The notes under the pieces were generated by a model. That model did no database searches. It was not told the DNA's origin and saw nothing but the letters and a program-made list of their open reading frames with translations. Positions 5,703 to 46,701 of a DNA stretch of 64,000 nucleotides are shown here, in pieces (positions within the stretch are counted from its first letter, which is position 1; each line of letters begins with the position of its first letter). The DNA comes from a virus (Duplodnaviria; Caudoviricetes): IMG/VR virus record IMGVR_UViG_3300025121_000013, one strand, 5' to 3'. Made by a program: the position numbers and the translations under genes.

Positions 5703-5729
5703 ACTTTAGTTTTCTTTGGAGAATAAGAA

Positions 5730-12503: not shown

Positions 12504-12514
12504 ATATTCTCCTC

Positions 12515-12724
12515 TCAGAACTTTCGTTTTATTTTAATGTATTTATCTTTTAAAAGAATTTCTTTCATTTCTTCATTTTGAAAATAAATCGCCATTAAGA
12601 TTGAAAAAATTGCAAATACAAGAATACAAAGACAATTAAATATATTTCTTTGAACTATAAATCCAGAAGAACCAAAAGAAATAAACGCTATAATGAAGAA
12701 TATCATTTTTAGAGCGCTATTCAT
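12515..12724 (-). CDS. Small membrane protein
   Basis: Two hydrophobic segments. Confidence 0.5.
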   Translation of the reverse strand: MNSALKMIFFIIAFISFGSSGFIVQRNIFNCLCILVFAIFSILMAIYFQNEEMKEILLKDKYIKIKRKF

Positions 12725-12726
12725 TT

Positions 12727-18432: not shown

Positions 18433-18822
18433 TTAAAATTTATCTTTGATTATTGAACTAATCATTTTTCCATCCGCTTTTGTTCCAAAATGATTTTTAA
18501 TAATTCCAATAGCTTGCATTTTATTTTTCAAAGAACTAAAATCAATATGATTTGAAATCCACATTAATAATTCTTCTTCAGATATAGGTTGAGGTATGTA
18601 CTGTTTTAAAATTGAAATATAAACTTCATCTGGCACTGGAAACTTTTTTGCATCATCAGCCATTTTATTTAAAAGATTTATTATTCTTTGATCTTCGATT
18701 TCTTTTTTTGTATCTATTCTTGCCAATTCTCCCATTATAATAATCAATACATTTTTCTTTATTTCATCTTTTTCTTTTCTAGCTTTTTGAAGGTCGGCTT
18801 TTATTTTCTGTTGAATTGTCAT
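18433..18822 (-). CDS. GatB/YqeY domain protein
   Basis: MTIQQKIKADLQKARKEKDEIKKNVL..LKQYIP..MGII pattern. Confidence 0.75.
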   Translation of the reverse strand: MTIQQKIKADLQKARKEKDEIKKNVLIIIMGELARIDTKKEIEDQRIINLLNKMADDAKKFPVPDEVYISILKQYIPQPISEEELLMWISNHIDFSSLKNKMQAIGIIKNHFGTKADGKMISSIIKDKF

Positions 18823-19619
18823 TTAGTTAGAGGAAGATTACAAATTAAACCGATTTGTCTAATCATTTCTGATATTTCTAAAACAGGAATATTTAAAATT
18901 TTCGAAATTTCTTCCCTCTTTTTCTCTTCAAAAAAGATATAATTTATAATTTGTTTTTGACTTTCAGTCAATTTTTCAAGATTTGGTTTAACATTAGATT
19001 CATAAACTTCTCCTGGATGAAAGGATAAAAGTTGAAAATTAGGATATAATTTTTTAAAAGAAACATCTAGAGTTCTACAGAGGTGAAGAATGACATTCTT
19101 ATAACAATATTTATTAATATTTTTCATATGAATTGGAGAAACATTTCCATTCATTATACTTCTCAACGTAGAATATGACAATCCAGTCCCTTTCATGATG
19201 TCTTCTATTCGAGATCCATAAAGAGAATAACAAAATTCTTCAACTTTATTTTCAAAATGCCAACGAGTTCTTTCATTTTTTTCTTTAACCATACTAATAG
19301 GAATTGGAATTGGTTCAGGAATTGTAGTTGAAGGTGGAATTTCCGGAACAATATTTTTTGTTTTAAGTTTTTCTGCTAGAGGAACGATCATATCCAATTC
19401 TTTTTTATGTTTATCCATATAAAATTTATAAATAAATTCAGGAGAAATGCCGAAATATTTTGAAAGTTTAAGAACTCCACAGGTACTAAATTCTACATCG
19501 TCATTTAAAGCTGCTGTGAGGCCTTTTACAGTTCCAAAAAGGTGTTTGGCCATTTCTTCAATTGAAATATTATTTGGTTTCAAAAAACATTCGATGATCA
19601 TCTCTCCTATTGAGTACAT
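18819..19619 (-). CDS. Multi-HTH regulator (HigA-like N-terminus, central HTH, sigma-r4-like C-terminus)
   Basis: GEMIIECFLKPNNIS..LSKYFGISPEF; DIMKGTGLSYSTL; LTESQKQII..EEISKILNI. Confidence 0.6.
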   Translation of the reverse strand: MYSIGEMIIECFLKPNNISIEEMAKHLFGTVKGLTAALNDDVEFSTCGVLKLSKYFGISPEFIYKFYMDKHKKELDMIVPLAEKLKTKNIVPEIPPSTTIPEPIPIPISMVKEKNERTRWHFENKVEEFCYSLYGSRIEDIMKGTGLSYSTLRSIMNGNVSPIHMKNINKYCYKNVILHLCRTLDVSFKKLYPNFQLLSFHPGEVYESNVKPNLEKLTESQKQIINYIFFEEKKREEISKILNIPVLEISEMIRQIGLICNLPLTK

Positions 19620-32491: not shown

Positions 32492-32812
32492 TCATCTCAA
32501 ATTTTCAAAAAAGAAATAATAATTGTTCTTAAATTTATATTTAGTCTTATGAATATGATTTAAAAAATTAGTTCTACAAAATTTAAACTTCATTTTTAAA
32601 TGAGAAATAATTAACGTATGCATATTATTAGAAAAATGAAATTCAGCTTTGCAATTTGAACAGATAAGAATTTTAAAACATAATATACTCTTTTTAAAAT
32701 CTATTGTTTTTTCCCCACATATTAGACAATAACTATCCTCTAATGAATTCAAAGAAAAATCCCCACATGGCATATCACATTGATCTTTCAAAATACATTC
32801 AATACAAATCAT
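32492..32812 (-). CDS. Family C paralog
   Basis: CIECILKDQCDMPC / CLIC..CSNC. Confidence 0.75.
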   Translation of the reverse strand: MICIECILKDQCDMPCGDFSLNSLEDSYCLICGEKTIDFKKSILCFKILICSNCKAEFHFSNNMHTLIISHLKMKFKFCRTNFLNHIHKTKYKFKNNYYFFFENLR

Positions 32813-33115
32813 CGAACAACTCTCCTATATAAATTTTCAGAAAGAAAACTGTACATAAAATAATATTTTAAATTTTTTGAAAATATAGACATACTTATTG
32901 TCTCAATTTGATATTTTTGATTGCAATTAATACATTCAATATTAATAACATTGTTATAAACAATTCTAGAATTACAAAAAATACATCGACAATTTCTAAA
33001 TGAATAAATTTTTGATTCAAAAAAACGCATTACATTTTTCAATCTGTATTGTTTTTAAAATATCAATGCAAGGGTTTTCACAAATATTTTGAAGAATGCA
33101 ATTATCACAAAGCAT
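32809..33115 (-). pseudogene. Family C paralog, frameshifted at an A5 run (33035-33039)
   Basis: MLCDNCILQNICENPC is in one frame and CIFC..CINC in the next. Confidence 0.7.
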
Positions 33116-33479
33116 TTTTCTTCGCAATAAATCTATAAAAATATTCCATATGATAAAGAAGACAAATTCCTGAATATAAATCAGATTCCAATATAAAGCA
33201 TACAAAAGGTTCAAAAACATAAGTTATATTACAAGTTGAACATCTGGTAATTAAAGAATTGTTTATCGAGATTCCTCCTTTATTATGTAAATGTCCAAAA
33301 TTTTTATATTTGTTTTTAAGTTCTGTAAATATAAGATTATTGCAAAATACACATTTTGATTTATGTGGGGTATAGGGTCTAATCAATTGTTGAAAATTTA
33401 ATGTTTTTAAACGGTTATGTAATTCAGAACATATTTCATTATTACAAATATTTTGAAGAATGCAATTATCACAAAGCAT
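33105..33479 (-). CDS. Family C paralog
   Basis: CDNCILQNICNNEIC / CVFC..CSTC; its first 36 bp are identical to 33080-33115. Confidence 0.75.
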   Translation of the reverse strand: MLCDNCILQNICNNEICSELHNRLKTLNFQQLIRPYTPHKSKCVFCNNLIFTELKNKYKNFGHLHNKGGISINNSLITRCSTCNITYVFEPFVCFILESDLYSGICLLYHMEYFYRFIAKKNAL

Positions 33480-33481
33480 AT

Positions 33482-33784
33482 TTATTCATTATATGTACTA
33501 AAACTTCCTTTATTAAAAATTATAATTCCCTTATCTTTTGTTTTTTTAGATTTAATTATTGTGCCAAAATTAGTTTGAAAATATTCTAACCCACAGTTTT
33601 GACAAAATGATTTTTTAGATATATACCTTTCATAAAAGCTAAATTTATTTTTACAAAAAATACAATGATCCATTTTGGTTCTATAAACACTTAAAATTCT
33701 TTCCATTTCTGAACATATATTTTTGCAAATATTTTGTATAATACATGCTTCACAAAGAAAACTACTAATTTTTAGGTTTTCCAA
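33482..33784 (-). CDS. Family C paralog
   Basis: CEACIIQNICKNIC / CIFC..CQNC. Confidence 0.75.
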   Translation of the reverse strand: MENLKISSFLCEACIIQNICKNICSEMERILSVYRTKMDHCIFCKNKFSFYERYISKKSFCQNCGLEYFQTNFGTIIKSKKTKDKGIIIFNKGSFSTYNE

Positions 33785-34250
33785 TCAAAGCTATATTGGC
33801 TCCATTAAAGTTCAATTTTCGTTGAATAACTTCGAAAGATGAATTCTCAGCGATTCTTATTAAATGTTCTATCCATTTTTTTATATCTCTATTTTTATTA
33901 TTAAACTGAGTTGTGGTTGGCAATACGCAACAGGGAATAATAAAGAATGGAATTCTTCTTTTTAAAGATTCTGTTAAAATAATATCAGTTGCTTCATCTG
34001 GGTGAATTCCAACCAATAAATCAAAATTATCATTTTCTTTCTCAGAAAAATAAGTATTTTTAAAATTAATATTTTTTTCTCTTTTTCTTCTATTTCTTTT
34101 CTTATCAAAGGTCGTGATATTATAGTCAGATAATACTATTTGTAATTTTCCAGTTCCTCCAGCAATATCAGCAATATTCCTAAATTTTTCTTTTGGAAAA
34201 TAAAACCTTATGAGTCTTCCTGCCTCAAAAAACCTCTTTCTGTCTCCCAT
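33765..34250 (-). CDS. Class I SAM-dependent methyltransferase-like protein
   Basis: IADIAGGTGKL; GIHPDEAT; IIPCC. Confidence 0.75.
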   Translation of the reverse strand: MGDRKRFFEAGRLIRFYFPKEKFRNIADIAGGTGKLQIVLSDYNITTFDKKRNRRKREKNINFKNTYFSEKENDNFDLLVGIHPDEATDIILTESLKRRIPFFIIPCCVLPTTTQFNNKNRDIKKWIEHLIRIAENSSFEVIQRKLNFNGANIALIGKPKN

Positions 34251-34296
34251 TTTTTCTCCTCTTCAAATCTAGATTTTTGTCAATTTTATAAAACTA

Positions 34297-34656
34297 TCAC
34301 ATAATATTTATGGATCTTCTCAAAGAATTTTTTCTTCTATAGCCTTGTTCTTTTAAAATAAATTTACAGCTTCTTTTTCTATGAAAATTTTTTATAAGAC
34401 AGAATTCATTTCGAAAATTTGTGAAAATAGAAAAATACAATTCTGTGATTCTGTATTTTGTTTTACAGTTAGAACATAGCCATCTATTTGGTGAAGGTTT
34501 TATTAATTTTAAGTCGCAGATCAAACATTTTTTATTTTCATTCTCTGAAAATATTGAATGCGTTTGAAGTTTAGCAATCGATTCATTTAAAAGAAAACAA
34601 TTATCACAATATGAATTTTTAAATATTAAACATTCAAAACAAGGAATATTAATCAA
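34297..34656 (-). CDS. Family C paralog (subtype B)
   Basis: CFECLIFKNSYCDNC / CLIC..CSNC. Confidence 0.75.
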   Translation of the reverse strand: MINIPCFECLIFKNSYCDNCFLLNESIAKLQTHSIFSENENKKCLICDLKLIKPSPNRWLCSNCKTKYRITELYFSIFTNFRNEFCLIKNFHRKRSCKFILKEQGYRRKNSLRRSINIM

Positions 34657-34985
34657 GTCTGAAACCCCATCTTAGGTTTTATTTTATAAGCTGTATCAAA
34701 TGTGTGATATTCTAAATATATGTTTTTAATAGATATAGATAAATAATTGAATGTACATATATAACTTACTCTACAATTTTCACACCAGTATCTATGAAAT
34801 AAATTAGCTTTTAAGTTTGATTTACAAAATAAACATGTCTTAATTTCTTGATTTGAAAATATTGGATTATTTTGGATTTTAATTTTAAAAAATTCTTCTT
34901 GTAAAAGAATGCAAGAAGAACAAGTCGGCATATTTAATAATAGGCATTCAAAACAAGGCACATGAAAAGAATTTAAATTAGTCAA
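34653..34985 (-). CDS. Family C paralog (subtype B)
   Basis: CFECLLLNMPTCSSC / CLFC..CENC. Confidence 0.75.
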   Translation of the reverse strand: MTNLNSFHVPCFECLLLNMPTCSSCILLQEEFFKIKIQNNPIFSNQEIKTCLFCKSNLKANLFHRYWCENCRVSYICTFNYLSISIKNIYLEYHTFDTAYKIKPKMGFQT

Positions 34986-35308
34986 GAATCAAATATTGAA
35001 AAACTTTTAATACTAACATTTGTCGAATGATAATATTCAAATTCTATTTCTTCTTTTATAAACCGAATATATAAATAGTGTGAAAATACTAAATAATAAA
35101 TTTTACAATGTTTGCATTCAAAATTAGGTTTTGAAATAACTGTTACGACTTTTTCGCAAAACAAACATGTCTTAATTTCTTGTTTTAAAAACATCGAATG
35201 ATCCTTAAGATTGTCAAATTCATCTTTTAGAAGTATGCATTGTTTACATCGATATTTTTTAAGAATGCAATTAAAACAAGGAATATGAAGAAAATCTGAA
35301 CTAATCAA
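34982..35308 (-). CDS. Family C paralog (subtype B)
   Basis: CFNCILKKYRCKQC / CLFC..CKHC. Confidence 0.75.
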   Translation of the reverse strand: MISSDFLHIPCFNCILKKYRCKQCILLKDEFDNLKDHSMFLKQEIKTCLFCEKVVTVISKPNFECKHCKIYYLVFSHYLYIRFIKEEIEFEYYHSTNVSIKSFSIFDS

Positions 35309-35656
35309 TTAAAAAGGTAAAAAGGGCTAATCATAGGTTTTTTAAAATAATATTTATAAGTTCTATCAGGAGATAAAAAATATTCAATTAGAATATTAGA
35401 TTTTACTAATTTGATGCATAAATAATTTATAGTCATTATATATTGAATTTTACAATGTACACATAAATATTCATGTTTTGTAATAATATTGTCGGTATGT
35501 TTTCCACATATTAAACAATTACAAATCTCTTTTTTTAAAGACATTGAATTATTTTTAAATTTATCAAATTCATTTTTTAGAAGTATACAATCAACACGCA
35601 TAATTTTTAAGAATGCAATCAAAACAGTGAACTTGAAAAGAATTTAAATTAGTCAT
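35305..35656 (-). pseudogene. Family C paralog (subtype B), frameshifted near 35595
   Basis: MTNLNSFQVHCFDCILKNYAC is followed by a stop; VDCILL.. continues in another frame. Confidence 0.7.
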
Positions 35657-35730
35657 ATTCGAAAATTTGAATATTAGAAATTTCTCTTTTAAAATAAGTT
35701 TTATAAATATATTCTTCAAATGGAAAATAT

Positions 35731-36015
35731 TCAATTAATATTTTTATTCATAAACCGAATGTATAAATATTTTCTAGAAACTACAAAATAAATTTTACAA
35801 TGAGTACATTCAAAATCACTTATTGAAATATATCTTGTCGGTTTTTCACAAAATAAACATTTTTTATTTTTTCTTTCTAAAAATATTAAATTATCTTTAA
35901 GTTTATAAAATTCATTCTTTAAAAGTATACAATCAACGCACTGAGCATAATTTTTAAGAATACAATCAAAACAATATATGTTAATATTTTTATTTAAATT
36001 ATGGAGTTCTTTCAT
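35731..36015 (-). CDS. Family C paralog (subtype B)
   Basis: CFDCILKNYAQCVDC / CLFC..CTHC. Confidence 0.75.
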   Translation of the reverse strand: MKELHNLNKNINIYCFDCILKNYAQCVDCILLKNEFYKLKDNLIFLERKNKKCLFCEKPTRYISISDFECTHCKIYFVVSRKYLYIRFMNKNIN

Positions 36016-36521
36016 AACCTAAAATTTTCATTATTTGGAAGATTCTTCATTATTTCCTTAATTTGATCAAAAGAAACCGGATAAAAATTATTATTATCCA
36101 CTCCTATATCCCATGTTTTTCCATAGGGTTTCATCCTTCCGTGTGAATGCCCAAATAAAAGCCAACTATTATAATGTGATCTAGGCCATCTTAACATAGC
36201 GTAATGGCAAATTACAATATATTCTTTTTCATATTTTAATTCAAATATTTCATGATAAAATTTTTTATTAAGTTTCATCCAATAATCATGACTGCCTTTT
36301 AAAAAAATATGTTTTCCTTTTAAAGAATTTATATAATCTTGAACATCGGTTTTTAACAAAGAAAAATCTCCAGCATGAATAACAATATCATTCTCTTTAA
36401 CAATTTCATTATTATTTTGAATCAATTTATTATCCATCTCTGTTATATTTTTAAATGGTCGATTACATAATTTAATTATTTTTCTATGGCCATAATGTTC
36501 ATCAGAAGTGAAAAAATACAT
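36012..36521 (-). CDS. Metallophosphoesterase (calcineurin-like)
   Basis: FTSDEHYGH, HAGDFS, GSHD, CHY and GHSHG motifs. Confidence 0.9.
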   Translation of the reverse strand: MYFFTSDEHYGHRKIIKLCNRPFKNITEMDNKLIQNNNEIVKENDIVIHAGDFSLLKTDVQDYINSLKGKHIFLKGSHDYWMKLNKKFYHEIFELKYEKEYIVICHYAMLRWPRSHYNSWLLFGHSHGRMKPYGKTWDIGVDNNNFYPVSFDQIKEIMKNLPNNENFRL

Positions 36522-36576
36522 ATTTTAAAACCCCTCCTGTACAAAAGATTTTATTGCTATTTTTTAGTATTTAGAT

Positions 36577-36897
36577 TTAATTAATTTCTATAGGAGATGA
36601 ACTAAATGTCCATATTACATTCTTTTTCACAAACCCAATTCGTCTGGTAGCTAACTGAACTCCAATTCCATTATTTTTCTTAAATTCAATAATTAAACTA
36701 CTAATAAAAGTCCTATATATGATATTACATTTTTCACAATAATAATTATCTCTTTCCTTATTAATAGTTTTACACCCACAATTTAAACAATTTTTTATTA
36801 TTCTATCCCATGAAAAAGTTTTAAAACTATTTATAATATTTGTACAAAGTTCTTTACATTGTGGTTTTAAAATACAATCAACACAAAGTAGTTTCAT
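36577..36897 (-). CDS. Family C paralog
   Basis: CVDCILKPQCKELC / CLNC..CEKC. Confidence 0.75.
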   Translation of the reverse strand: MKLLCVDCILKPQCKELCTNIINSFKTFSWDRIIKNCLNCGCKTINKERDNYYCEKCNIIYRTFISSLIIEFKKNNGIGVQLATRRIGFVKKNVIWTFSSSPIEIN

Positions 36898-36913
36898 TTT
36901 GTTTTATTCCTCC

Positions 36914-37135
36914 CTAACATTTTCTTGATATAGAATGTTTATAGTCTATGTCTTTTAAAGGCTCATTACAAAATAAGCATCTGGTAAATCGATCATGATT
37001 TATAAAAAATTTATCATTTTTAACAATTTGTTTCCATTCTTTCATTAAGTTTAAAGTTATGGGGTTGAAGATTTTTATACAATCGTCACATTGTGAGTCA
37101 CAAGTTTTTGTTAAAATACAATGGCTACAAATCAA
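36914..37135 (-). CDS. Family C paralog, C-terminally truncated
   Basis: CSHCILTKTCDSQC / CLFC..C, then a stop. Confidence 0.65.
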   Translation of the reverse strand: MICSHCILTKTCDSQCDDCIKIFNPITLNLMKEWKQIVKNDKFFINHDRFTRCLFCNEPLKDIDYKHSISRKC

Positions 37136-37548
37136 AGTGAGATCCCATAATCACGAATAATTATATTATCAAAATCATTATCTTTAGAATTTTTATGCAT
37201 ACAAATATAGTATTTTTCTATCTCAAAAATATGTCTCCTATCAACCAATTGAATAATCATTAAATTTGAAAAATTGGAAAACATATAAATTAAATTTTCT
37301 TTTTCACAATGAAATTTAGGAGCCCCATTTATTAAGGAAAATCTATCAGAAGATATATTTTTCTTTTTCTTTAGAATATCATCACAAAAAATACATTTAA
37401 TGGGTTCTAAATTTCCTATCCATTTAGCATCAGAATGATGAACTGATAAAAGTTCTTAGATTTGATCTTTCTTGTTTTTTACTATTTGAATTAAATTTAA
37501 ACACGCTGTATTACAACATTTTTCTAAAATACAATGATCACATATCAT
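37132..37548 (-). pseudogene. Family C paralog with an in-frame TAA (37456-37458)
   Basis: MICDHCILEKCCNTAC..; the 139-codon frame is otherwise open. Confidence 0.7.
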
Positions 37549-37563
37549 ATCTTTCCTTTCATA

Positions 37564-37923
37564 TTATATTTCATATTGAGGCAAAGAAAAATCTAATTTT
37601 CCACTTTCGGAATTATAATTTTTTCCTAAGGTAATTTTTCCATTAGGAAAACTAGGATAATTAAATATGAAAAATAAATTATATTTTTGACCTTCTATAA
37701 TTAAAAAAATTCTATCAAGAAGAAAATAATATAAAATTTTACAATTGGGACATTTAAATGAATGTGGGTAGTTTTGAACACGTTTTAATTTCACTTCGCA
37801 AAAAATACATTTTAAAGTTTTATTAATACTCCAGATTTGTTTTTTAGATTTTTTAACGAAATCAATTATAAAAATACAAGGAGCATTGCATTCTTTAGAA
37901 ATAATACAATCAATACAAATCAT
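37564..37923 (-). CDS. Family C paralog
   Basis: CIDCIISKECNAPC / CIFC..CPNC. Confidence 0.75.
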   Translation of the reverse strand: MICIDCIISKECNAPCIFIIDFVKKSKKQIWSINKTLKCIFCEVKLKRVQNYPHSFKCPNCKILYYFLLDRIFLIIEGQKYNLFFIFNYPSFPNGKITLGKNYNSESGKLDFSLPQYEI

Positions 37924-38330
37924 TTTTCAACTATTCTTTTAAATTGATCATTTTTTATATAAAAATCTTTTGATAAATAAATATTTTTCTTGTGTGCCGC
38001 TACCTCAACAAAAAATAAATACGTTGAATTTAAGGGTTTTATAAGAAATATATAATATCGAGAAAATTCATATCTATTTTCATATAAAAATACAGTTTTA
38101 CATTTTTTGCACCTTTTTGGGAGTGCAAAAGAGCCATCTATTAAAGGTATGTTCTCACAAATTCCATCACAAAATAAACACGGTTCAAAATTCATATTAT
38201 TTAATATTTCCCATCTTCTCTTAACATGCCAAGCCAACTTTTTTAAAATAATTTTTGAATCATCACATGGAAAATTACATATTCTTGTTAAAATGCAGTT
38301 ATCACATATCATAAGTTTTAATCTCTCCAA
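37920..38330 (-). CDS. Family C paralog
   Basis: CDNCILTRICNFPC / CLFC..CKKC. Confidence 0.75.
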   Translation of the reverse strand: MERLKLMICDNCILTRICNFPCDDSKIILKKLAWHVKRRWEILNNMNFEPCLFCDGICENIPLIDGSFALPKRCKKCKTVFLYENRYEFSRYYIFLIKPLNSTYLFFVEVAAHKKNIYLSKDFYIKNDQFKRIVEK

Positions 38331-38365
38331 GCTCCTTAAGTGCGAACGTCAAATTCTTAAGGAGC
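38331..38365. other. Perfect 10-bp intergenic hairpin containing AAGGAG
   Basis: GCTCCTTAAG/CTTAAGGAGC. Confidence 0.6.
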
Positions 38366-38380
38366 ATTTTAGTTGTGAAT

Positions 38381-38914
38381 TTATCTTTTCTCAAAATGAT
38401 TTTTTCTAACATTATGAAATGTAGTTTCAGTTTCCCTTTTTAAATTTTCAGGTTCTTTAAAATAATAATAAAGATAGTACGGAACCAAATTATTTTTGTA
38501 GTACATATCTTCAAGAATATATTCTCCTCGGTTTCTGGCATATTGTGCTTTTGGATCTTTAATTATTTTCATTGTATATAAAAGTAAAACGCCTTTTGTA
38601 TTTTCTCCCAATTTTATTAAAATTCTCATATGTATTAAATATAACGATATGTCAGGACGTTTTCTTGTGAAAGAAATTATTTCTGGTTCACACTTTGCTT
38701 CAATCAATCTCTTTAATAAATCTTTTTCTGAAATGATAAAATTAAAATAATCTGAATAAATTGAATCAAGTTCAGGAAGATTTTTAAACCCTATTATTTT
38801 TCCTTCAAAGATTCCTGGAAGAAAATCATATGGGCCATTATTTGCTAAACAATTAGAACTTGTGAAGATTAATAAAAATATGAATAAAGATATCGTTTTA
38901 ACCATAGCTTTCAT
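38381..38914 (-). CDS. Secreted or periplasmic hypothetical protein
   Basis: Signal peptide-like N-terminus ending in CLA. Confidence 0.65.
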   Translation of the reverse strand: MKAMVKTISLFIFLLIFTSSNCLANNGPYDFLPGIFEGKIIGFKNLPELDSIYSDYFNFIISEKDLLKRLIEAKCEPEIISFTRKRPDISLYLIHMRILIKLGENTKGVLLLYTMKIIKDPKAQYARNRGEYILEDMYYKNNLVPYYLYYYFKEPENLKRETETTFHNVRKNHFEKR

Positions 38915-38952
38915 GAACGATTCCTTTCCTTTTTAAATCACATTACTAAAGA

Positions 38953-39273
38953 TTAAAAATTTTCTATAAATATCTTTGAGGAAACAAAATTTCTGCTAAA
39001 AATATATTTCGTTTTATAAATAAGCATTGTTAAATCATTATTATTATTATCTTTAATATGTATTCTTCGATTTGTGATAAAATAATGAATTGAACATTTT
39101 AGACATTTGGAACGCCCCATATATATTTTTAACTGGGAATTACAAAATATACATTTATTTATTTCATTGTTTAAAAAATTTAAAATTCTGTTTTTATTTT
39201 TAGTTATCTCTTCAAAAAGATTAATACATATTTCATTGCAATTAAAACCTAAAATACAATTAACACAAATCAT
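38953..39273 (-). CDS. Family C paralog
   Basis: CVNCILGFNCNEIC / CIFC..CLKC. Confidence 0.75.
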   Translation of the reverse strand: MICVNCILGFNCNEICINLFEEITKNKNRILNFLNNEINKCIFCNSQLKIYMGRSKCLKCSIHYFITNRRIHIKDNNNNDLTMLIYKTKYIFSRNFVSSKIFIENF

Positions 39274-39682
39274 TAGGCAACTTTATACTAACGCCGGGAA
39301 GAATTTCAGTTGAATTAAAAACTTTTGTAACTGTTAATTTTTTAAAGGAGTCATCGATAAAAAATTCTGTTTTTCTATCAAGAAATAATTGTATAACGTA
39401 ACCTCTTCCATTATAGTTAAAATATATATTACAATTTTTACATATTTTTACAGAATTATTTGGAGCTTGTTCTAATTTTGAATCACAATAAATACAATTG
39501 ATCATAATAGGTTGTTTTAAAACATAAAGTATTTCTTTTATTTTATAAATTATCAATTCATCCATGATTCTATGACAAGGATAAAAACATATATTTTTTA
39601 AAATACAAATAGAACAATATGTTCTTCCATCAATTTTTATATTTTTTAAAATTTTGTTTTTATCAAAAATATAGTTAGACAT
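39260..39682 (-). CDS. Family C paralog
   Basis: CSICILKNICFYPC / CIYC..CKNC. Confidence 0.75.
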   Translation of the reverse strand: MSNYIFDKNKILKNIKIDGRTYCSICILKNICFYPCHRIMDELIIYKIKEILYVLKQPIMINCIYCDSKLEQAPNNSVKICKNCNIYFNYNGRGYVIQLFLDRKTEFFIDDSFKKLTVTKVFNSTEILPGVSIKLPNDLC

Positions 39683-40067
39683 CTTGTTCAATGACCTTTG
39701 AAGAATAAAGACGCATACCATTTTTATGTAATTGAAAATGGTTTAAATCCATGCAAATTTCTATTAAGAAATTTTCACTTATTATAAGGCGAACATAATC
39801 TACGAAAATATAATATTTTTGCCCGCAAACGCAACATTTATAATTAAGTTTACTTTTTAGATAAATACCAGAATCTGCCATTTGTAAATTGTTATCACAT
39901 AACAAACATTTTGTCACTCTCTTAGATAAAGTATAATTTCTTATAAAATTATTTTTAATTTTTTTAATCTCATTTTCATATTCTTTGCAAATGTTAAAAC
40001 ATATTCTTTTTAAAATACATTTGCCGCAAATTTCTAAAAAGTTTTTAGAGAACATATTCTTTTCCAT
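39675..40067 (-). CDS. Family C paralog
   Basis: CGKCILKRICFNIC / CLLC..CCVC. Confidence 0.75.
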   Translation of the reverse strand: MEKNMFSKNFLEICGKCILKRICFNICKEYENEIKKIKNNFIRNYTLSKRVTKCLLCDNNLQMADSGIYLKSKLNYKCCVCGQKYYIFVDYVRLIISENFLIEICMDLNHFQLHKNGMRLYSSKVIEQDV

Positions 40068-40413
40068 GTGTCAAATGAAATATTTGTTTATCATTTTTTG
40101 ATACTATTAAATAAACCATTATAGTACTAATCTCAATTTTGTAATCTTCTTTTTTAAAACAAATATAATCTAAAAAACTATAATATAACTGGTTACAATT
40201 TGGACACTTATACCACATATTTAACCTATCTATTTTTATTTTTATAACTCTTTCACCACAAATTAAACATTGTTCTATATGTTTGTATAATTTAAAATCT
40301 TTTTCAAAATTATTTTTCATTTCTATAAGTTTATTTTTATATTCTAAGCAAATAGGAATACAAACATTTTTTAAAATGCAATTATTACAAAAAGTTAAAA
40401 TATTATTATTCAT
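40045..40413 (-). CDS. Family C paralog
   Basis: CNNCILKNVCIPIC / CLIC..CPNC. Confidence 0.75.
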   Translation of the reverse strand: MNNNILTFCNNCILKNVCIPICLEYKNKLIEMKNNFEKDFKLYKHIEQCLICGERVIKIKIDRLNMWYKCPNCNQLYYSFLDYICFKKEDYKIEISTIMVYLIVSKNDKQIFHLTHGKEYVL

Positions 40414-40774
40414 ATATGAACAGCAATTTCTCTTTGAAAGAAATATTTTCTTGATCAATAATTTTTTTAAAGTACAATACATTGCCAATATTAAAAACTT
40501 TAATTTCACAATTACCAATACAAAAAGAAAATGCCCAGTCACAGACTAAATTAAAATTATATTTGACTCCACACTTACAATTATAAGAAATGATAATTCC
40601 CAATGGAATTTCTAGATCACAAAAAATACAGTATCTGGGTTTCTCATTTAATAATTGATTCATTTTTAATTTTCTCGGTTCAAATTCTTCTTTGACAATT
40701 CTTTCACAAAATTCAAAACATGTACGGTTTAAAATGCAATTATTACAAAAAAACATTTTTATGTACTGTTTCAT
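40406..40774 (-). CDS. Family C paralog
   Basis: CNNCILNRTCFEFC / CIFC..CKC. Confidence 0.75.
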   Translation of the reverse strand: MKQYIKMFFCNNCILNRTCFEFCERIVKEEFEPRKLKMNQLLNEKPRYCIFCDLEIPLGIIISYNCKCGVKYNFNLVCDWAFSFCIGNCEIKVFNIGNVLYFKKIIDQENISFKEKLLFIYE

Positions 40775-41126
40775 TTAGTTCAACTGGAATATAACTATTT
40801 GTAACATTTTTCACTCTTTTAAAACCTATATTAAAATTTCTTTTCACTATCCAATATAATTCTTCGTTTTCTTCAATTACAACAAAACTTTCTGAGCAAC
40901 TCTCAACCCCTATGTTAAATTTCAAATTACAAAAATCACATTTAAAACTTAGAATATTTGATTGTTTATTTATCATTAATAATCTTCCACAATTCATACA
41001 TATTCTTTCTCCAACAAGAACACTTCTAATTTTTTCTAAAGATAATTTTTTAGAAATTTCTTCTATTCTATAACAATTTTTTTCACAAATTATTTTGCAT
41101 ATACAATCGGAACATGGAAATATCAT
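40743..41126 (-). CDS. Family C paralog
   Basis: CSDCICKIICEKNC / CMNC..CDFC. Confidence 0.75.
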   Translation of the reverse strand: MIFPCSDCICKIICEKNCYRIEEISKKLSLEKIRSVLVGERICMNCGRLLMINKQSNILSFKCDFCNLKFNIGVESCSESFVVIEENEELYWIVKRNFNIGFKRVKNVTNSYIPVELNETVHKNVFL

Positions 41127-41503
41127 AACGAAATCTCTCTTTCATCTTGAGGTTTAAATATTTTATATTTTGAAGTTCGTTCTCCTAAATTCAAATATAT
41201 CTTATCAAAGAATACTATTAAAAGAATTATTTCATACGGAGTTTTAATATAAATTTTTCCCATGGTTAAAAATATATTAAATGTATATGAAAGATTGCAT
41301 CTAGAACATTTTTTATGAAAAAGTATGTCATTACAATTAAGGGATGTTTTAGATAGAGTTTCCCCACAATTTATACAAATGTTTTTATTTGTTTTTATAT
41401 TATATAAAATATACTTTCTTTTTTCTTTAAAATTTTGAAGAATATTATAACAAGGAAAATGACAATTATTTTTTAAAATACAATTTAGACATTGTTTTGT
41501 CAT
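41123..41503 (-). CDS. Family C paralog
   Basis: CLNCILKNNCHFPC / CINC..CSRC. Confidence 0.75.
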   Translation of the reverse strand: MTKQCLNCILKNNCHFPCYNILQNFKEKRKYILYNIKTNKNICINCGETLSKTSLNCNDILFHKKCSRCNLSYTFNIFLTMGKIYIKTPYEIILLIVFFDKIYLNLGERTSKYKIFKPQDEREISL

Positions 41504-41871
41504 TCTAGATGTATTCTTATAAAAGCAGGATAATTCCATGCAGTTTCATCTGAATAAAAACTCATCCAATTTTTGCTAATACTAATAATTTTAGATCTTT
41601 GATCAATGGAAAATAAAAATCTATGTCCAGGTAATAAAAATTTTATGCACCAAGTTAATATAAATATTGTATTACAGTTTGGACAAATTTTTAATCTTTC
41701 ATACTCCTTAAAATCCTTAAGTAATTTTTCACAAAATATGCATTTATTTTTTCCTAATAAAATTAAATTTTTTGAAAGTGTGGTTTTGTTTTCTTCAAAA
41801 TATTTTTCAGTCAATGAACAAATTTGGTAACAACTATTTCCTAAAATACATTCTTGACAAGGAGGAATCAT
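41500..41871 (-). CDS. Family C paralog
   Basis: CQECILGNSCYQIC / CIFC..CPNC. Confidence 0.75.
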   Translation of the reverse strand: MIPPCQECILGNSCYQICSLTEKYFEENKTTLSKNLILLGKNKCIFCEKLLKDFKEYERLKICPNCNTIFILTWCIKFLLPGHRFLFSIDQRSKIISISKNWMSFYSDETAWNYPAFIRIHLE

Positions 41872-42259
41872 ATCTTATCATATCCTTAACTTTTCCATTT
41901 AAATAAAAATATTTATAATTCTTTGAAATTACCAAATGTGTTTCAGATATCTGAATGTCAAATATAAATTTGTGGTTGAATAAACGAAATTCAAAACACC
42001 CTACCATTGATCCAAATGCCGTATTACATTTAGGGCAGGTTTTTTTAAAAACAGATGGATTACTTTTTAATAATTTCTCTTTACAAAATATACATTGTTC
42101 ATTTATTTTTACAATATTGATCATATTTATAATTTCCTGTTTATTTTCTTCAAAATAATTTTTTGTTATCACACAAATTTGATAACAATTATTTTTTAAA
42201 ATACAATTAGTATCACAAGGGAGAAACAATTGAGATATCATACTGAGACGTATATTCAC
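41834..42259 (-). CDS. Family C paralog
   Basis: CDTNCILKNNCYQIC / CIFC..CPKC. Confidence 0.75.
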   Translation of the reverse strand: MNIRLSMISQLFLPCDTNCILKNNCYQICVITKNYFEENKQEIINMINIVKINEQCIFCKEKLLKSNPSVFKKTCPKCNTAFGSMVGCFEFRLFNHKFIFDIQISETHLVISKNYKYFYLNGKVKDMIRYDSSLSRMYFRK

Positions 42260-42554
42260 TGGTTTTAAAATACCAATATTCTTTTGTCAAATAAATTAAA
42301 AATCTACTTTTTGGTAAATTGACAACCAGGCTAAAACCATAAAATATATTCATAAAAGTAGTGGCACATTTGGGGCATTTTCCTCCAGGGACGTTTTGTA
42401 ATCTATCTAATTCAATATTACAAAATAAACATTTTTCTATAGATATTAAATTATCATCTGTTGAAAATAGTTTTCGATTTTCTCTAATATAGTTTCGAGT
42501 TTGATCACATATTCGGTCACATGCACTTATCAAAATACAATTCAAACAAAACAA
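42213..42554 (-). CDS. Family C paralog
   Basis: CLNCILISACDRIC / CLFC..CPKC. Confidence 0.75.
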   Translation of the reverse strand: MFCLNCILISACDRICDQTRNYIRENRKLFSTDDNLISIEKCLFCNIELDRLQNVPGGKCPKCATTFMNIFYGFSLVVNLPKSRFLIYLTKEYWYFKTSEYTSQYDISIVSPL

Positions 42555-42878
42555 TTAAATTATCACAGTGCAATCGTCATTTTTTATTTCATTTTTATAA
42601 ATAACCCCTTTATTAATTCTTATTTGTTTTGTATTTTTATTTATTGAGATTAAAAAATTATATTTTTTATTTAAAATCAGATAATATAGAGGATGCAAAC
42701 TCATATACATTAAATTTCAGTTCATACAATATAAATTAATTAAAGTATCCCCACAAAATAAGCAATTAGAAAAATCTTGATTTTTAAAGAACCGGTTTTT
42801 ATTTTTAAGAAAAGGGTCAATTATTTTTTGACATGATAAATTACAAAAATTATTTAAAATGCAAGTATTACAAATCAT
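42555..42878 (-). pseudogene. Family C paralog with an in-frame TGA at a conserved Cys position (42717-42719)
   Basis: MICNTCILNNFCNLSC..CLFC..YCMN*NLMY; 108-codon frame that is absent from the ORF track. Confidence 0.75.
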
Positions 42879-43327
42879 TTATAAATTATTTCTTTTATAA
42901 ATCGAGCTGGTGAACCATAATAAAGGCCTGGTTTTATTATGTTTTTAGAAACTAAAGACCCAGCCCCTATAATTGTATTTTCAACAATTTCAATTCCAGC
43001 TAAAATAATACAGCCAGACCCTATAATACAATTTTTATGAATGATAGTTATTTTCTCTTCTTCATCAGACCCAATATATTTAGTATGATTAAATATAACC
43101 CCTGGGCCGATAAAACAATTATCTTCAATGATAACATTTTTAGATATAATTGCGTTAGGCCTTATATTTACGTTTTTTCCAATAAAACAAGACCCGGTAG
43201 TTTTTACCCCATCTCCTATAATCGAATTTGATCTAATATGAGTTCCTGATTTTAATACAACCATATTTCCAATTAGAACATTATCACCAATAAAAACCTT
43301 ATTCTCAATTACACAAAATTCTCCCAT
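42875..43327 (-). CDS. Hexapeptide-repeat (left-handed beta-helix) acyltransferase
   Basis: Repeated IG.N/IG.G hexapeptides; IGAGSLVSK and GSPAR. Confidence 0.85.
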   Translation of the reverse strand: MGEFCVIENKVFIGDNVLIGNMVVLKSGTHIRSNSIIGDGVKTTGSCFIGKNVNIRPNAIISKNVIIEDNCFIGPGVIFNHTKYIGSDEEEKITIIHKNCIIGSGCIILAGIEIVENTIIGAGSLVSKNIIKPGLYYGSPARFIKEIIYK

Positions 43328-43331
43328 GTTT

Positions 43332-44009
43332 TTATCTCCTTAAACGTGCGGGATTTCCAAAATAAGTTGAATCTGGTTTTGTACTTTCCAATAAAACTGA
43401 TCCAATTCCTATGGTTGAAAACTTTGAAATGCATAGATTATTTGATATGGTTGATCCGGGTCCAATATAAGTTCCTTTCTCTATAACACAATCTCCGCAA
43501 ATTGTTGAATTGGCACCAATATAAACAAAATCTTTAATGATACTTTGCCCACCAATATGTGACCCAGCTATAATTGTGGAAAATTCTCCTATTCTAACCA
43601 TTGGACTAATAGTGACATTTGGCCCAATAAAAATTCCTTTCTCTAAAATATAATTTTTAGGCATTGACACAGAATGATGAATAACAGATAAAATTTGTTT
43701 GTCAGGAATGTTCATTTTTTTAATCAAATTAATTCGACTTTTCATATCGTTAACTTTTAACAAAGAAAAAGCAAAAAGGCAACCGTCATCTATACGTCTC
43801 TGAATATCATTAAAAGATTCAAGAACTGGAATTCCTAAAAAAACAGATCCAATTGGAAAATTATCATCTAAAAATCCCAAAATTTTATGTTCTGATTTCA
43901 CAAAATTTGTATAAAAAGTATGTTCTCTATAAATGCTTGCGCCGCCTATAATTGCATCTGCAATTTGTATTCCAGCTGAACGGACTCCGAGTATGATTAT
44001 ATTTTTCAT
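43332..44009 (-). CDS. NeuD/PglD-like sugar O/N-acetyltransferase
   Basis: N-terminal Rossmann-like IIILG..GFLDD, then hexapeptides and GNPAR. Confidence 0.85.
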   Translation of the reverse strand: MKNIIILGVRSAGIQIADAIIGGASIYREHTFYTNFVKSEHKILGFLDDNFPIGSVFLGIPVLESFNDIQRRIDDGCLFAFSLLKVNDMKSRINLIKKMNIPDKQILSVIHHSVSMPKNYILEKGIFIGPNVTISPMVRIGEFSTIIAGSHIGGQSIIKDFVYIGANSTICGDCVIEKGTYIGPGSTISNNLCISKFSTIGIGSVLLESTKPDSTYFGNPARLRR

Positions 44010-44269
44010 TTCTTCTTTCTCCTTCTATATTGAAATATCAATATTAAAATCCATAAATTTATTATGATACAAAAAATATTTGAAATTATCATTGGATTGT
44101 TTGAAATTTTGAACCCATAAATTATCCACCATATTTGTCCATGAATAACAATGAGCCATAATGATATCGAAATATCATCACTTCTTTTTCTTTGATACAA
44201 TTTGATAATTTGTGGAACCCCAGAAAAAGCCATTGATACCCCAATTATTGTAATCCAAAAATCAATCAA
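44006..44269 (-). CDS. SemiSWEET/PQ-loop family membrane protein
   Basis: GVPQIIKLYQRKRSDDIS..WWIIYG..PMIISN; three TM helices. Confidence 0.85.
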   Translation of the reverse strand: MIDFWITIIGVSMAFSGVPQIIKLYQRKRSDDISISLWLIVIHGQIWWIIYGFKISNNPMIISNIFCIIINLWILILIFQYRRRKKK

Positions 44270-44691
44270 GGAAGTACAAGCCTTACCACCCCATTGTGAA
44301 GCTTATCGTCTCTATACCTAGAAAAATCTTCTGAACATATATGAAACTGCCTCACAATATCCATTCTAAATATTCTAACATTTAAATGTTCTGTATGAAA
44401 ATAATCAATTAAAATTTGTTTTTCATTTTTAATAAGAATTGCAAAAAACTTATAATTAGGAGTGTATAAATATTGAACGTCACAAATTCCACAAGAATAT
44501 AAACAATTAGGAAACAAGTGTTCTTCTCTTTTGTTTAATAATTCTTCTCCACAAAATACACAATTATTTAATATTGTGTCTTTATAACTATTATTATCAA
44601 TTAATTCTTTGAAGTTAATCATTTTAATTAGATTTTTACACGGGGTTTCACATGTCTTTTTTAAAATACATTCTATACAACAAATTTTCAT
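44266..44691 (-). CDS. Family C paralog
   Basis: CIECILKKTCETPC / CVFC..CGIC. Confidence 0.75.
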   Translation of the reverse strand: MKICCIECILKKTCETPCKNLIKMINFKELIDNNSYKDTILNNCVFCGEELLNKREEHLFPNCLYSCGICDVQYLYTPNYKFFAILIKNEKQILIDYFHTEHLNVRIFRMDIVRQFHICSEDFSRYRDDKLHNGVVRLVLP

Positions 44692-44701
44692 TCTTCCTCC
44701 T

Positions 44702-45058
44702 TTAAGTTATATTGACATAATGATATTTATGAAGAATTAAAATATTATAAGTGTCTGGATGTTTATATCTGTTAAATCTATAAATATTAAAAAAACTATA
44801 AATTCGTTTAGAAATAAAAACATCAAAAATGAAATTAAAATTTGAATCTTTTTCAATTAATAAAAAACAATCGTTTCTATGACTTATCATTTGAAAAGTA
44901 ATATTACAATTCCCACATTGATTAGCGACTAAATATTTTTCACAAAAAATACATTTTTCTAATCTTATTAAATTTTGTATATTTTTTATTGTGTGAACAA
45001 AATCAATACAAACTAAATCACATGAATTTTTTAGAATGCAATTATTACAAAGAAACAT
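44702..45058 (-). CDS. Family C paralog
   Basis: CNNCILKNSCDLVC / CIFC..CGNC. Confidence 0.75.
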   Translation of the reverse strand: MFLCNNCILKNSCDLVCIDFVHTIKNIQNLIRLEKCIFCEKYLVANQCGNCNITFQMISHRNDCFLLIEKDSNFNFIFDVFISKRIYSFFNIYRFNRYKHPDTYNILILHKYHYVNIT

Positions 45059-45494
45059 CTAATTTCACCTGATTTTCTCGATTTAGGCTTATTAAATAAG
45101 ATATATTATATAACGAGTCTTTAAAATAGGTAGTGAATTTAAAAACTGTAAATAAAGTACTGTTTCTATTAGCTTTTATAAAATCAAAAATAAATAAATT
45201 TTTATTTTTTGATATTATTGCAAAACATTCAACTCTAGAAACACCTATATATCTTAATTTACACCCTTCACAAATAAAAAGATTATTAGATTTTTCAGTT
45301 TTTCCTGTTAATTTGTTTTTACAAAATACACAATGCTCTGGTCGTTTTCGATATTTATTAATACTATAATCATTTATAATTATTGAGAAATCTATTTCTT
45401 TAATAATTTCATCGCATGGTTTCATACATGTAAAACATAAAATACAATTATCACAAATTAACATATAAAATAAGTCCTTTATCTTTTTTATCAT
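45045..45494 (-). CDS. Family C paralog
   Basis: CDNCILCFTCMKPC / CVFC..CEGC. Confidence 0.75.
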   Translation of the reverse strand: MIKKIKDLFYMLICDNCILCFTCMKPCDEIIKEIDFSIIINDYSINKYRKRPEHCVFCKNKLTGKTEKSNNLFICEGCKLRYIGVSRVECFAIISKNKNLFIFDFIKANRNSTLFTVFKFTTYFKDSLYNISYLISLNRENQVKLDVSL

Positions 45495-45855
45495 GGATCA
45501 ACCTAGTCAAGTTTTGATCTGTTTTTAAAAACCGATGAGAAACATTTACTCGAAATATTATAAAATGCATACGATTTGAAGAAAAATTATCATAATCAAA
45601 AATAAATTTTGGCTTTATGCTTTCTGCATAAGATAATGAAAAACATTTCCAACGAAAAGTTGATGAATATATTATATTACAATTTTTACATTTTAAATCA
45701 AAAAAATTCCCTTCAAACACTTTTCCACAAAATAAACAAACGGGAGGAAAAAGCGTTACACCCTTAAAATGTTGAAAATTCATATTTTTTATGATCTCTT
45801 CACATGGCTTCACGCAGGTAAAAGTTAAAATACATTTTTCGCAGAGATCAATCAA
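45451..45855 (-). CDS. Family C paralog
   Basis: CEKCILTFTCVKPC / CLFC..CKNC. Confidence 0.75.
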   Translation of the reverse strand: MIDLCEKCILTFTCVKPCEEIIKNMNFQHFKGVTLFPPVCLFCGKVFEGNFFDLKCKNCNIIYSSTFRWKCFSLSYAESIKPKFIFDYDNFSSNRMHFIIFRVNVSHRFLKTDQNLTRLIHDKKDKGLILYVNL

Positions 45856-46238
45856 GGCGTCTTCTCCTTTGTATCTAAAGGTATAAAATTAAATGATCTA
45901 TTATGTAAAATATTTATAGCTATTTTTGAAAAAGATATATATGTCTGAATTTGTTTAAAAAATATTTCAATTGAGATTTTATGATTAATCAAAAGAATAG
46001 ATGAACAATATTCACAAGTTTCACGTATTATATGAGGAGAGGCATTATAAACTTTATATTTGCCATCATATAAATATTTTCCACAACAAAAACAATGTAA
46101 AAATTCTTTTTGATTAATCAGATCAAAAATAGTTTTTTGATTTTTAAAAATATATTGTAATGATGAAGCACATGATTCTTGACAATAACCAATTAAAATG
46201 CAATCTAAACAAGGGAATCTCTCAAATCTATTTTTCAA
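45852..46238 (-). CDS. Family C paralog
   Basis: CLDCILIGYCQESC / CFCC..CEYC. Confidence 0.75.
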   Translation of the reverse strand: MKNRFERFPCLDCILIGYCQESCASSLQYIFKNQKTIFDLINQKEFLHCFCCGKYLYDGKYKVYNASPHIIRETCEYCSSILLINHKISIEIFFKQIQTYISFSKIAINILHNRSFNFIPLDTKEKTP

Positions 46239-46600
46239 GGAGATTTTCCAGTCCTTAAGATAATTCCTTCTGACATAAAATCTTTTGGGTGGTTTCTTAA
46301 GACCAATAATTTATTAATATAAAATTCCAACGATAGCAAAATATTATTATTTTTTTCATCCAGAAAAAATATATCTGAAAAATAAATTATTCTTAATCCA
46401 CATGTTTTACAAAATCTGACTGGGATATAATCTCCTGTTTCAAATAAAAGTTTTTCTTCACAATAAATACATTTTGAACTATCAACATTTTTAAAAAAAT
46501 CTATCTCCTTAAGATATGGTTTAAACATTTTATCTACAATTTCTTTGCAGCATTCTAAACATTGATTTTTTAAAATACAATCGATGCATAGGCATTTCAT
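46235..46600 (-). CDS. Family C paralog (first gene of the array)
   Basis: CIDCILKNQCLECC / CIYC..CKTC. Confidence 0.75.
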   Translation of the reverse strand: MKCLCIDCILKNQCLECCKEIVDKMFKPYLKEIDFFKNVDSSKCIYCEEKLLFETGDYIPVRFCKTCGLRIIYFSDIFFLDEKNNNILLSLEFYINKLLVLRNHPKDFMSEGIILRTGKSP

Positions 46601-46678: not shown

Positions 46679-46701
46679 CTCATTTATTAATATATATAGT
46701 T
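46679..46701 (-). promoter_or_regulatory. AACTATATATATTAATAAATGAG motif (putative early promoter) heading the Cys array
   Basis: Identical to 15015 and 25214. Confidence 0.65.

Follow-up and report, generated by a model that had tools for sequence, protein, structure and literature searches.

The closest described systems and the locus

Several described systems resemble parts of the locus reported here, a run of small cysteine-rich genes on the minus strand of a phage genome (positions 32492-46600 of the 64,000-nt stretch of DNA that we analysed, hereafter the window). In the four-cysteine (C4) zinc ribbons of RPA12, Rpb9, TFIIS and Elf1, beta hairpins bear two CxxC knuckles with 10-30 residues between them. 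ECs_2282 (NF047912), YnfU (NF038384) and Lar (TIGR03655) come from phages or prophages, and each is a small protein with a single CPxCG...CxxC ribbon. Lar is the precedent for a tiny zinc-ribbon anti-restriction protein, and we know of no tandem expansion in these three families. Lineage-specific tandem expansion, fast divergence, pseudogenes and accessory placement are found together in the T4 internal-protein locus and in the multigene families of poxviruses and asfarviruses, whose functions (host range or anti-defence) are known in part.

The genes of this locus share the two-knuckle ribbon of the first group. However, the RPA12, Rpb9, TFIIS and Elf1 ribbons match only the middle third of a member, and the N-terminal four-cysteine module (N-module) and the tail have no counterpart in them. 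An N-module is likewise lacking in ECs_2282, YnfU and Lar. The pattern of expansion is shared with the T4, poxvirus and asfarvirus families, although there is no sequence relationship to any of them. To our knowledge, neither a copy number of 31-38 nor a two-site metal scaffold has been described for phages, and few paralog arrays in phage genomes match those of 31-38 copies in size.

A tandem array of 31 paralogs

The window comes from a 139-kb IMG/VR record, with an estimated completeness of 45%, of an uncultured, contractile-tailed huge phage of ~265 kb. Using open reading frame (ORF) listing, a motif scan, manual choice of starts and an alignment of the intact genes (A1), we found 31 paralogs between 32492 and 46600, all on the minus strand, of which 26 are intact (94-141 aa) and five are decayed. 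A hidden Markov model (HMM) of the family matched every intact member (E 1e-12 to 1e-26) and also picked up the five decayed copies (two frameshifts, two in-frame stops, TAA and TGA, and one truncation by a TAG). The original prediction, made from the letters of this DNA, had proposed about 31 hyperdiverged minus-strand paralogs with four copies disrupted and one truncated, and these counts held. The sizes that it had given, 73-150 aa, held in part: 73 aa is the truncated copy, while 150 came from longest-ORF calls. The genes had also been called consecutive. They do form a tightly packed run on one strand, but a library scan of the proteins showed that six unrelated genes are interspersed.

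We observed 13 ATGA or TTGA overlaps of 4 nt at the junctions, as predicted, and about ten further junctions overlap by 8-47 nt; the array genes are presumably coupled in translation, and the array is probably transcribed as one polycistron. The single motif predicted at its head was also found. This 14-mer, ATTAATATATATAG, lies 86 nt ahead of the first start codon of the array, and the window holds 6 copies of it (with at most one mismatch) against 0.24 expected. We infer that it acts as a promoter, and likewise the early timing that had been proposed for it.

Independent assemblies from other samples were 99.98-100% identical across 36235-56600, and the three breaks in this part are therefore not assembly errors. 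The exact 36-nt start that two copies had been said to share was seen in the gene at 33105-33479 and the fragment at 33017-33115. Contigs of four runs showed an 18-nt deletion variant, and their assembly broke at this 36-nt repeat; the joints were short-sided and were not trusted. At 23.5% GC, about 9% of random codons are stops, and simple arithmetic gives p ~3e-5 for an open frame of 110 codons, which excludes a chance origin of the open frames. Recoding of stop codons was rejected as an account of the in-frame TGA at 42555-42878, since TGA terminates 14 of the 26 intact genes. A reading of the genes as precursors of ribosomally synthesized and post-translationally modified peptides was also rejected: such precursors do not resemble proteins that carry structural metal motifs and have 100-140 aa, and no maturase was found among the six interspersed genes scanned.

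Two four-cysteine sites and a variable tail

In A1 the 26 intact genes had eight cysteines in common and almost nothing else. Seven of these columns are invariant, and the third cysteine shifts in one subgroup. The mean pairwise identity in the array was 22.6%, or 16% once the shared cysteines were removed, and the closest pair reached 52%. One non-cysteine position of A1, I9, was nearly invariant. The N-terminal motif (N-motif), mostly C-x2-C-[IL][IL]-x3-C-x3-C, begins at residue 2-15. The ribbon follows, with C-x-[FIL]-C ~20-25 residues past the N-motif and C-x2-C 10-30 residues further on. The eight-cysteine core of ~60-70 aa is followed by a variable, beta-rich tail of 30-70 aa.

We modelled two different members with AlphaFold2 (AF2; predicted local distance difference test score, pLDDT, 68 and 70). 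Both models placed their secondary-structure elements in one order: a short helix over the first cysteine pair, a loop with the third cysteine, a second helix starting from the fourth, a linker helix, the two-hairpin ribbon and then the tail strands. The shared order argues that the motif has not arisen by convergence on unrelated folds, which had been named as a possible refutation. The ribbon is the best-modelled region (pLDDT 84-89), with strands predicted on either side of both knuckles. Its C-x2-C ... C-x2-C is invariant in A1-A4, and family positions ~30-80, and only these, matched the zinc ribbons of RPA12, Rpb9 and Elf1 by profile (E 1e-3 to 1e-5). By profile and by predicted structure, the central site is thus almost certainly a C4 zinc ribbon, as originally proposed.

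The spacing of the N-motif had been given as C-x2-C-x5-C-x3-C. We found it exactly in 19 of 25 window members, while the subgroup at 34297-36015 has C-x2-C-x6/7-C-x2-C, i.e. two CxxC knuckles. Across four lineages, the exact x2/x5/x3 spacing was kept by 86 of 103 members with an N-motif (83%); the remaining 17% vary, and the spacer between the third and fourth cysteines ranges from 2 to 10 residues. The ribbon was present in 96 of the 103. Because of the two-knuckle subgroup and the variable last spacer, zinc appears to be a more likely ligand of the N-module than a cubane, with an iron-sulfur (Fe-S) cluster as the alternative. Four cysteines over 14 residues is also the span of a retroviral CCHC knuckle.

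The earlier analogy with the SPASM domain did not extend beyond this spacing. SPASM/twitch domains share the local C-x2-C-x5-C-x3-C with 86 of the 103 members. However, the members are free-standing proteins of ~100 aa with the motif at residue 2-15, they lack both the upstream C-x9-15-G-x4-C and the trailing cysteines, and they have no radical-SAM core and no radical-SAM or SPASM profile match. The two-knuckle subgroup favours a mononuclear site. The [4Fe-4S] sensors of the WhiB/FNR type also differ, since their fourth cysteine is remote whereas the four cysteines of the members all lie within 14 residues.

The members have no signal peptide, and those of the window are mildly basic (median isoelectric point, pI, 8.8). 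Relatives that consist of the N-module only look acidic (by eye, alignment A5), so that the family lacks a single charge pattern of the kind expected from nucleic-acid binders.

Search for known families and folds

We scanned more than 60 members in total against Pfam, PHROGs, NCBIfam and PADLOC. These libraries gave sub-threshold matches to the ribbon only and named no family, in agreement with the original prediction. No Pfam zinc-ribbon model reached its cut-off, and the Pfam scans of members gave no match to a WhiB (Whib, PF02467) or CRP/FNR-fold profile. SPASM, Fer4_12 and Fer4_14 were absent from the matches of 10 members at E up to 1 and of 47 members at E up to 0.01. PADLOC gave only three single matches, with E above 6e-4, among 47 members. 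The best PHROGs match of the window members had an E of 0.007; one member of the L018 array reached 3.8e-4, over the ribbon only. With NCBIfam and 31 members from other lineages, sub-threshold ribbon matches to ECs_2282 or YnfU were seen in four (22-27 bits, the best scores being 26.5 and 23.6 bits, against cut-offs of 36-37), and Lar matched the ribbon of one of the 31, likewise sub-threshold (E 0.0035).

Foldseek searches of the Protein Data Bank (PDB), BFVD, AFDB clusters and ESM Atlas gave no significant fold match (best E 0.07), and VIA-align against 48,161 chains gave none either (best Z 3.4). Several restriction-endonuclease folds appeared in VIA-align at only Z 2.0-3.4, and DpnI was matched by sequence over the ribbon (E 4e-4). 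The scattered fold matches of the PD-(D/E)xK nuclease type are probably noise; no acidic or lysine column is conserved in A1, and a catalytic nuclease role is therefore unsupported. A tblastn search with two members against 50,697 GenBank phage records returned no match. In the literature we found no description of the family, and the huge-phage paper is silent on paralogs, cysteine and zinc. Judged from the sequences, the members belong to no named family and are a new protein family with a new N-terminal domain.

Evolution of the array

Neighbouring copies were slightly more alike than distant ones (25.7% vs ~22-23% identity), and for 8 of 26 members the best partner lay next door. Such a pattern is consistent with copies that arose in tandem and then diverged deeply. 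A strain variant, L004, was 99% identical to the window over 41395-41865 but carried a different upstream paralog (L004:1-243 in place of window 41834-42259). The point of the switch coincides with the conserved 5' end of a gene, which suggests recombination between paralogs at that point.

Rates of evolution were measured in one pair of related lineages, L008 and L019. Their tail-sheath proteins are 91% identical with a ratio of nonsynonymous to synonymous substitution rates (dN/dS) of 0.12, and the sheath gene and its neighbours span 0.06-0.19. Four orthologs in the arrays were 59-78% identical with dN/dS of 0.29-0.76, the ratio being 0.28 in the core and 0.54 in the tail. Four of the eight L008 array genes had no ortholog in L019, and the copy numbers were 8 and 6. 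Thus the array genes of this pair evolve three to six times faster than their structural neighbours and turn over. As dN/dS is below 1, these array genes are under purifying, though relaxed, selection and encode functional proteins. Together with the pseudogenes and the strain variant with its different neighbouring paralog, the comparison of rates and copy numbers bears out the birth-and-death evolution that had been proposed.

The family on other contigs

A profile search of 1.84 billion representative proteins gave 49 matches, about two thirds of them from the window phage itself. This search of databases with a family profile, which had been named as a check, led to other phage contigs. 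The family is not unique to the window phage: we found arrays on five other contigs (L017, L018, L008, L019 and L001; Table 1). Arrays are the rule for the family on the contigs that were followed from profile matches. Judging from these sequences, the family underwent independent expansion on several contigs of uncultured phages and reached 6-38 tandem copies. A DNA pattern for YPCKDC gave 24 loci, of which 20 were chance matches.

The consensus of the other lineages is [FY]PCK-x-C[LI][ILV]-x3-C-x3-C ... CP-x-CG ... C-x2-C (alignment A4). The shortest of these members have only ~60 aa, so the eight-cysteine unit is the core and the tail is optional. In L017 the N-module was also found without the ribbon but fused to hydrophobic, membrane-type helices (4392-4634, 5387-5731 and 6878-7204). 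We further observed N-module-only proteins of 56-98 aa with only 4-5 cysteines, in which PC-x2-C-L-x4-C-x3-C is followed by a helical tail and which occur in clusters of three; those of the L021/L022 type have 32 more database relatives, all unnamed. Since each four-cysteine site occurs alone in other proteins, the two sites are independent, and the occurrence of the N-module alone or fused to membrane helices indicates that it is an independent new domain.

One large protein, P0008 (L002:10001-13486, 1161 aa), was rejected as a member, as it has seven CxxC...CxxC ribbons and no N-module. It had matched via its ribbon part only, and its gene lies on another large phage contig, where its neighbours are a split gene of the RNA polymerase beta-like type and genes of the SNF2 and SMC-like types.

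What the array may encode

We favour, with a probability of about 0.5, the reading that the members are a cytoplasmic two-zinc scaffold that carries a diversified repertoire of host-directed binders. Both four-cysteine sites would bind structural zinc and hold together a minimal cytoplasmic scaffold, which would leave the tail and the exposed surfaces free to vary. Together the copies would supply binders or inhibitors of different host proteins, for host takeover or counter-defence, a repertoire that tandem duplication, divergence and pseudogenisation would keep renewing. We prefer this host-directed reading because the fixed metal core with a faster tail, the lineage-specific expansion, the pseudogenes and the low-GC accessory block behind a phage-specific motif match the accessory genes of large viruses. 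Both the identity of the metal and the host-directed function are what we infer from sequence. Four observations weigh against the reading. Over whole genes dN/dS stays under 1, which does not demonstrate positive selection, and the values were obtained in a related lineage. The position of the array, with the tail-sheath gene on one side and baseplate genes on the other, could equally suit proteins associated with the virion. The AF2 models reach only moderate confidence, and their tails are poorly modelled. Finally, the exact x2/x5/x3 spacing, kept in 83% of the 103 members, is stricter than a zinc site with a purely structural role would require.

This last observation also speaks for an N-module that binds an Fe-S cluster, next to a ribbon with zinc or iron; the members would then sense redox state or oxygen, or act as small electron carriers, and the array would be a set of regulators under redox control. 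The exact spacing recurs over four lineages, and C-x2-C-x5-C is a recurrent [4Fe-4S] spacing, in FNR, WhiB-like proteins, EndoIII/MutY, AddB/Cas4 and SPASM. One N-module-only protein had a faint Fer4_15 match (E 0.019), and the habitat is groundwater, which is often anoxic. However, no Fe-S family profile was significant in the more than 60 members scanned, a subgroup has two CxxC knuckles and other members stretch the last spacer to 5-10 residues. Moreover, four cysteines within 14 residues would be unusual on one cubane, and the fourth cysteine of SPASM serves another cluster. We therefore regard this reading as possible but doubtful. A bolder version, which we hold to be rather unlikely, takes the N-terminal [FY]PC-x2-C-[IL][ILV]-x3-C-x3-C as a new autonomous phage metal-cluster domain, perhaps Fe-S and redox-responsive. 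It would be deployed in combinatorial, immune-like arrays of 30 to 40 copies, each copy neutralising or sensing a different host factor, and would be renewed by recombination at the conserved 5' ends. It is also unlikely that the members are nucleic-acid-binding zinc-ribbon transcription or translation factors, which would adjust either the host machinery or the multisubunit RNA polymerase of the phage itself, with different paralogs for different sites. The ribbon is indeed most like those of the RNA polymerase subunits and elongation factor RPA12, Rpb9 and Elf1, the window members are mildly basic, and probably the same phage encodes RNA polymerase beta/beta-prime-like genes with a family member nearby. 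Yet this likeness is generic to zinc ribbons, and apart from I9 no conserved non-cysteine position in A1-A4 could form a common nucleic-acid interface. A basic pI is expected in a region of 23% GC, the N-module-only relatives look acidic by eye, and thirty or more regulators on one contig would be extreme.

A role in the virion, as packaged, ejected or decoration proteins, would follow the logic of the T4 internal proteins, which have a conserved N-terminal part and hypervariable bodies. The placement of the array would agree with this, as would the arrays of L008 and L019, which likewise adjoin a sheath gene, and the conserved module, which is always at the extreme N-terminus. We consider it quite improbable nonetheless: the array and the structural genes are on opposite strands, the motif at the head of the array seems to mark accessory blocks and is not the one before virion operons, and the orphan copies of the window phage are not beside structural genes. 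It is highly improbable that the array is an evolutionary by-product of neutral or decaying duplications in which most copies are functionless. Five of the 31 copies are broken, the GC of the array is under that of the remaining genome, and identity outside the shared cysteines is very low (16%). These features must be set against 26 frames of 94-141 codons that stay open in DNA of 23.5% GC, the retention of all eight cysteines in nearly all copies, orthologs in a related lineage with dN/dS well below 1 and large arrays that recur in four or more further phage lineages or contigs.

Huge phages hold large blocks of unannotated small genes, and one such block resolves here into a single family with two putative metal sites, with the N-terminal four-cysteine module as a candidate new domain. 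A fixed metal core, a faster tail, pseudogenes and changes in copy number are the arms-race gene pattern of large eukaryotic viruses. If the members do bind host targets, the family would amount to a natural library, on a compact binder scaffold, of small and stable proteins that inhibit bacterial proteins or defence systems.

Genes of the array and their surroundings

The genes of the array and the family on other contigs are listed in Table 1.

Table 1. Genes of the array in the window, in order along the minus strand, and occurrences of the family on other contigs
Feature	Position or extent	Strand	Basis or content
14-mer ATTAATATATATAG (letters on +), putative promoter heading the array	46686-46699	-	enrichment count
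Member 1, 121 aa, intact, AF2 model mf2ca4efba728	46235-46600	-	motif, A1, HMM
Member 2, 128 aa, intact, TTGA-coupled	45852-46238	-	motif, A1, HMM
Member 3, 134 aa, intact, TTGA-coupled	45451-45855	-	motif, A1, HMM
Member 4, 139 aa, intact	45045-45464	-	motif, A1, HMM
Member 5, 118 aa, intact	44702-45058	-	motif, A1, HMM
Member 6, 141 aa, intact	44266-44691	-	motif, A1, HMM
Non-member, SemiSWEET/PQ-loop transporter, 87 aa	44006-44269	-	PF03083, E 1.9e-11
Non-member, hexapeptide-repeat acyltransferase, 225 aa	43332-44009	-	PF00132, E 3.6e-13
Non-member, hexapeptide-repeat acyltransferase, 150 aa	42875-43327	-	PF00132, E 4.6e-22
Decayed member, in-frame TGA after codon 53, second ribbon knuckle lost	42555-42878	-	HMM
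Member, 113 aa, intact	42213-42554	-	motif, A1, HMM
Member, 141 aa, intact; first knuckle C-x3-C; 18-nt in-frame deletion variant in another sample	41834-42259	-	A1, HMM
Member, 123 aa, intact, AF2 model md04b70717f42; near-identical L004 ortholog with different upstream paralog	41500-41871	-	A1, HMM
Member, 126 aa, intact, ATGA-coupled	41123-41503	-	motif, A1, HMM
Member, 127 aa, intact, ATGA-coupled	40743-41126	-	motif, A1, HMM
Member, 116 aa, intact; atypical second knuckle C-x-C	40406-40756	-	motif, A1, HMM
Member, 122 aa, intact	40045-40413	-	motif, A1, HMM
Member, 126 aa, intact	39675-40055	-	motif, A1, HMM
Member, 140 aa, intact, 22-aa N-terminal extension	39260-39682	-	motif, A1, HMM
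Member, 106 aa, intact	38953-39273	-	motif, A1, HMM
Non-member, 177 aa, hydrophobic signal-like N-terminus, no family	38381-38914	-	ORF listing, library scan
Member, 130 aa, intact	37920-38312	-	motif, A1, HMM
Member, 119 aa, intact, ATGA-coupled	37564-37923	-	motif, A1, HMM
Decayed member, in-frame TAA after codon 30, degenerate second knuckle	37132-37548	-	HMM
Truncated member, 73 aa, TAG at second ribbon knuckle	36914-37135	-	HMM
Member, 106 aa, intact	36577-36897	-	motif, A1, HMM
Non-member, calcineurin-like metallophosphoesterase, 169 aa	36012-36521	-	PF00149 at cut-off; PF12850, E 4.8e-5
Member, 94 aa, intact, subgroup, N-terminal C-x2-C-x7-C-x2-C	35731-36015	-	motif, A1
Decayed subgroup member, frameshift between N-motif and rest	35305-35656	-	HMM
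Member, 108 aa, intact, subgroup; 52% identity to 35731-36015, closest pair in array	34982-35308	-	A1
Member, 110 aa, intact, subgroup, TTGA-coupled	34653-34985	-	A1, HMM
Member, 119 aa, intact, subgroup, TTGA-coupled	34297-34656	-	A1, HMM
Non-member, weak methyltransferase-like protein, 161 aa	33765-34250	-	PF13679, E 3.6e-4, under cut-off
Member, 100 aa, intact	33482-33784	-	motif, A1, HMM
Member, 124 aa, intact; first 36 nt equal to start of next, broken copy	33105-33479	-	A1
Decayed member, frameshift between N-motif (33017-33115) and ribbon part (32809-33042)	32809-33115	-	HMM
Last member, 106 aa, intact, ATGA-coupled; end 61 nt from convergent tail-sheath gene	32492-32812	-	ORF listing, A1
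L017 array	15.2 kb		~38 HMM matches among ~45 consecutive small genes
L018 array	26.7 kb		27 members
L008 array	part of 101-kb contig		8 members, adjoining tail-sheath gene
L019 array, sister lineage of L008			6 members, adjoining sheath gene
L001 array	698 bp		at least 3 adjacent members
N-module-only proteins	L021:1213-1981, 12299-12772; L022:936-3195, 10689-11082		IMG/VR contigs

The array is flanked by a tail-sheath gene (29809-32430), which converges with it, and by baseplate genes, which diverge from it; both are on the plus strand. The GC content of the array is 23.5% against 30% in the remainder of the window. Contigs of the same phage, 264.8-265.0 kb long and including NCBI GCA_902731115.1, are present in groundwater and soil metagenomes. 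The tail-sheath protein of the window phage is only distantly related to the sheaths of phiR1-37 and PBS1/AR9, and a search of IMG/VR with it did not find close relatives.

SemiSWEET, acyltransferase and phosphoesterase genes are scattered among the array members as accessory context. The SemiSWEET/PQ-loop sugar transporter gene and the two hexapeptide acyltransferase genes (42875-44269) are joined by ATGA/TTGA overlaps inside the array, and with them the phage might carry a small cassette for the modification or import of sugars.

Further copies of the family were found in the same genome outside the window. A full-length member lies ~63 kb from the array (G000:C1:39086-39505, minus strand) and is identical to P0027; contigs L005-L007, which carry P0027, were rejected as an independent phage, being the same genome as the window phage. 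A 59-aa frame with the N-motif only (G000:C1:36817-36993, minus strand) stands among other small cysteine-containing genes. The member P0039 (L015:8001-8405) was found between the genes for GTP cyclohydrolase I and DNA ligase and adjoins RNA polymerase beta/beta-prime-like genes; it is on contigs of the same samples and probably belongs to the window phage, outside the 139-kb record.

Elsewhere in the window, a 266-aa protein (18819-19619) matched helix-turn-helix and sigma-70 region 4 profiles, and a similar sigma70_r4 protein sits upstream of the 27-member array of L018. A 357-aa ORF at 1725-2798 gave a strong match to the Cas12f1/TnpB-type TNB domain (PF07282, E 6.6e-23), and the phage therefore carries a TnpB-like gene.

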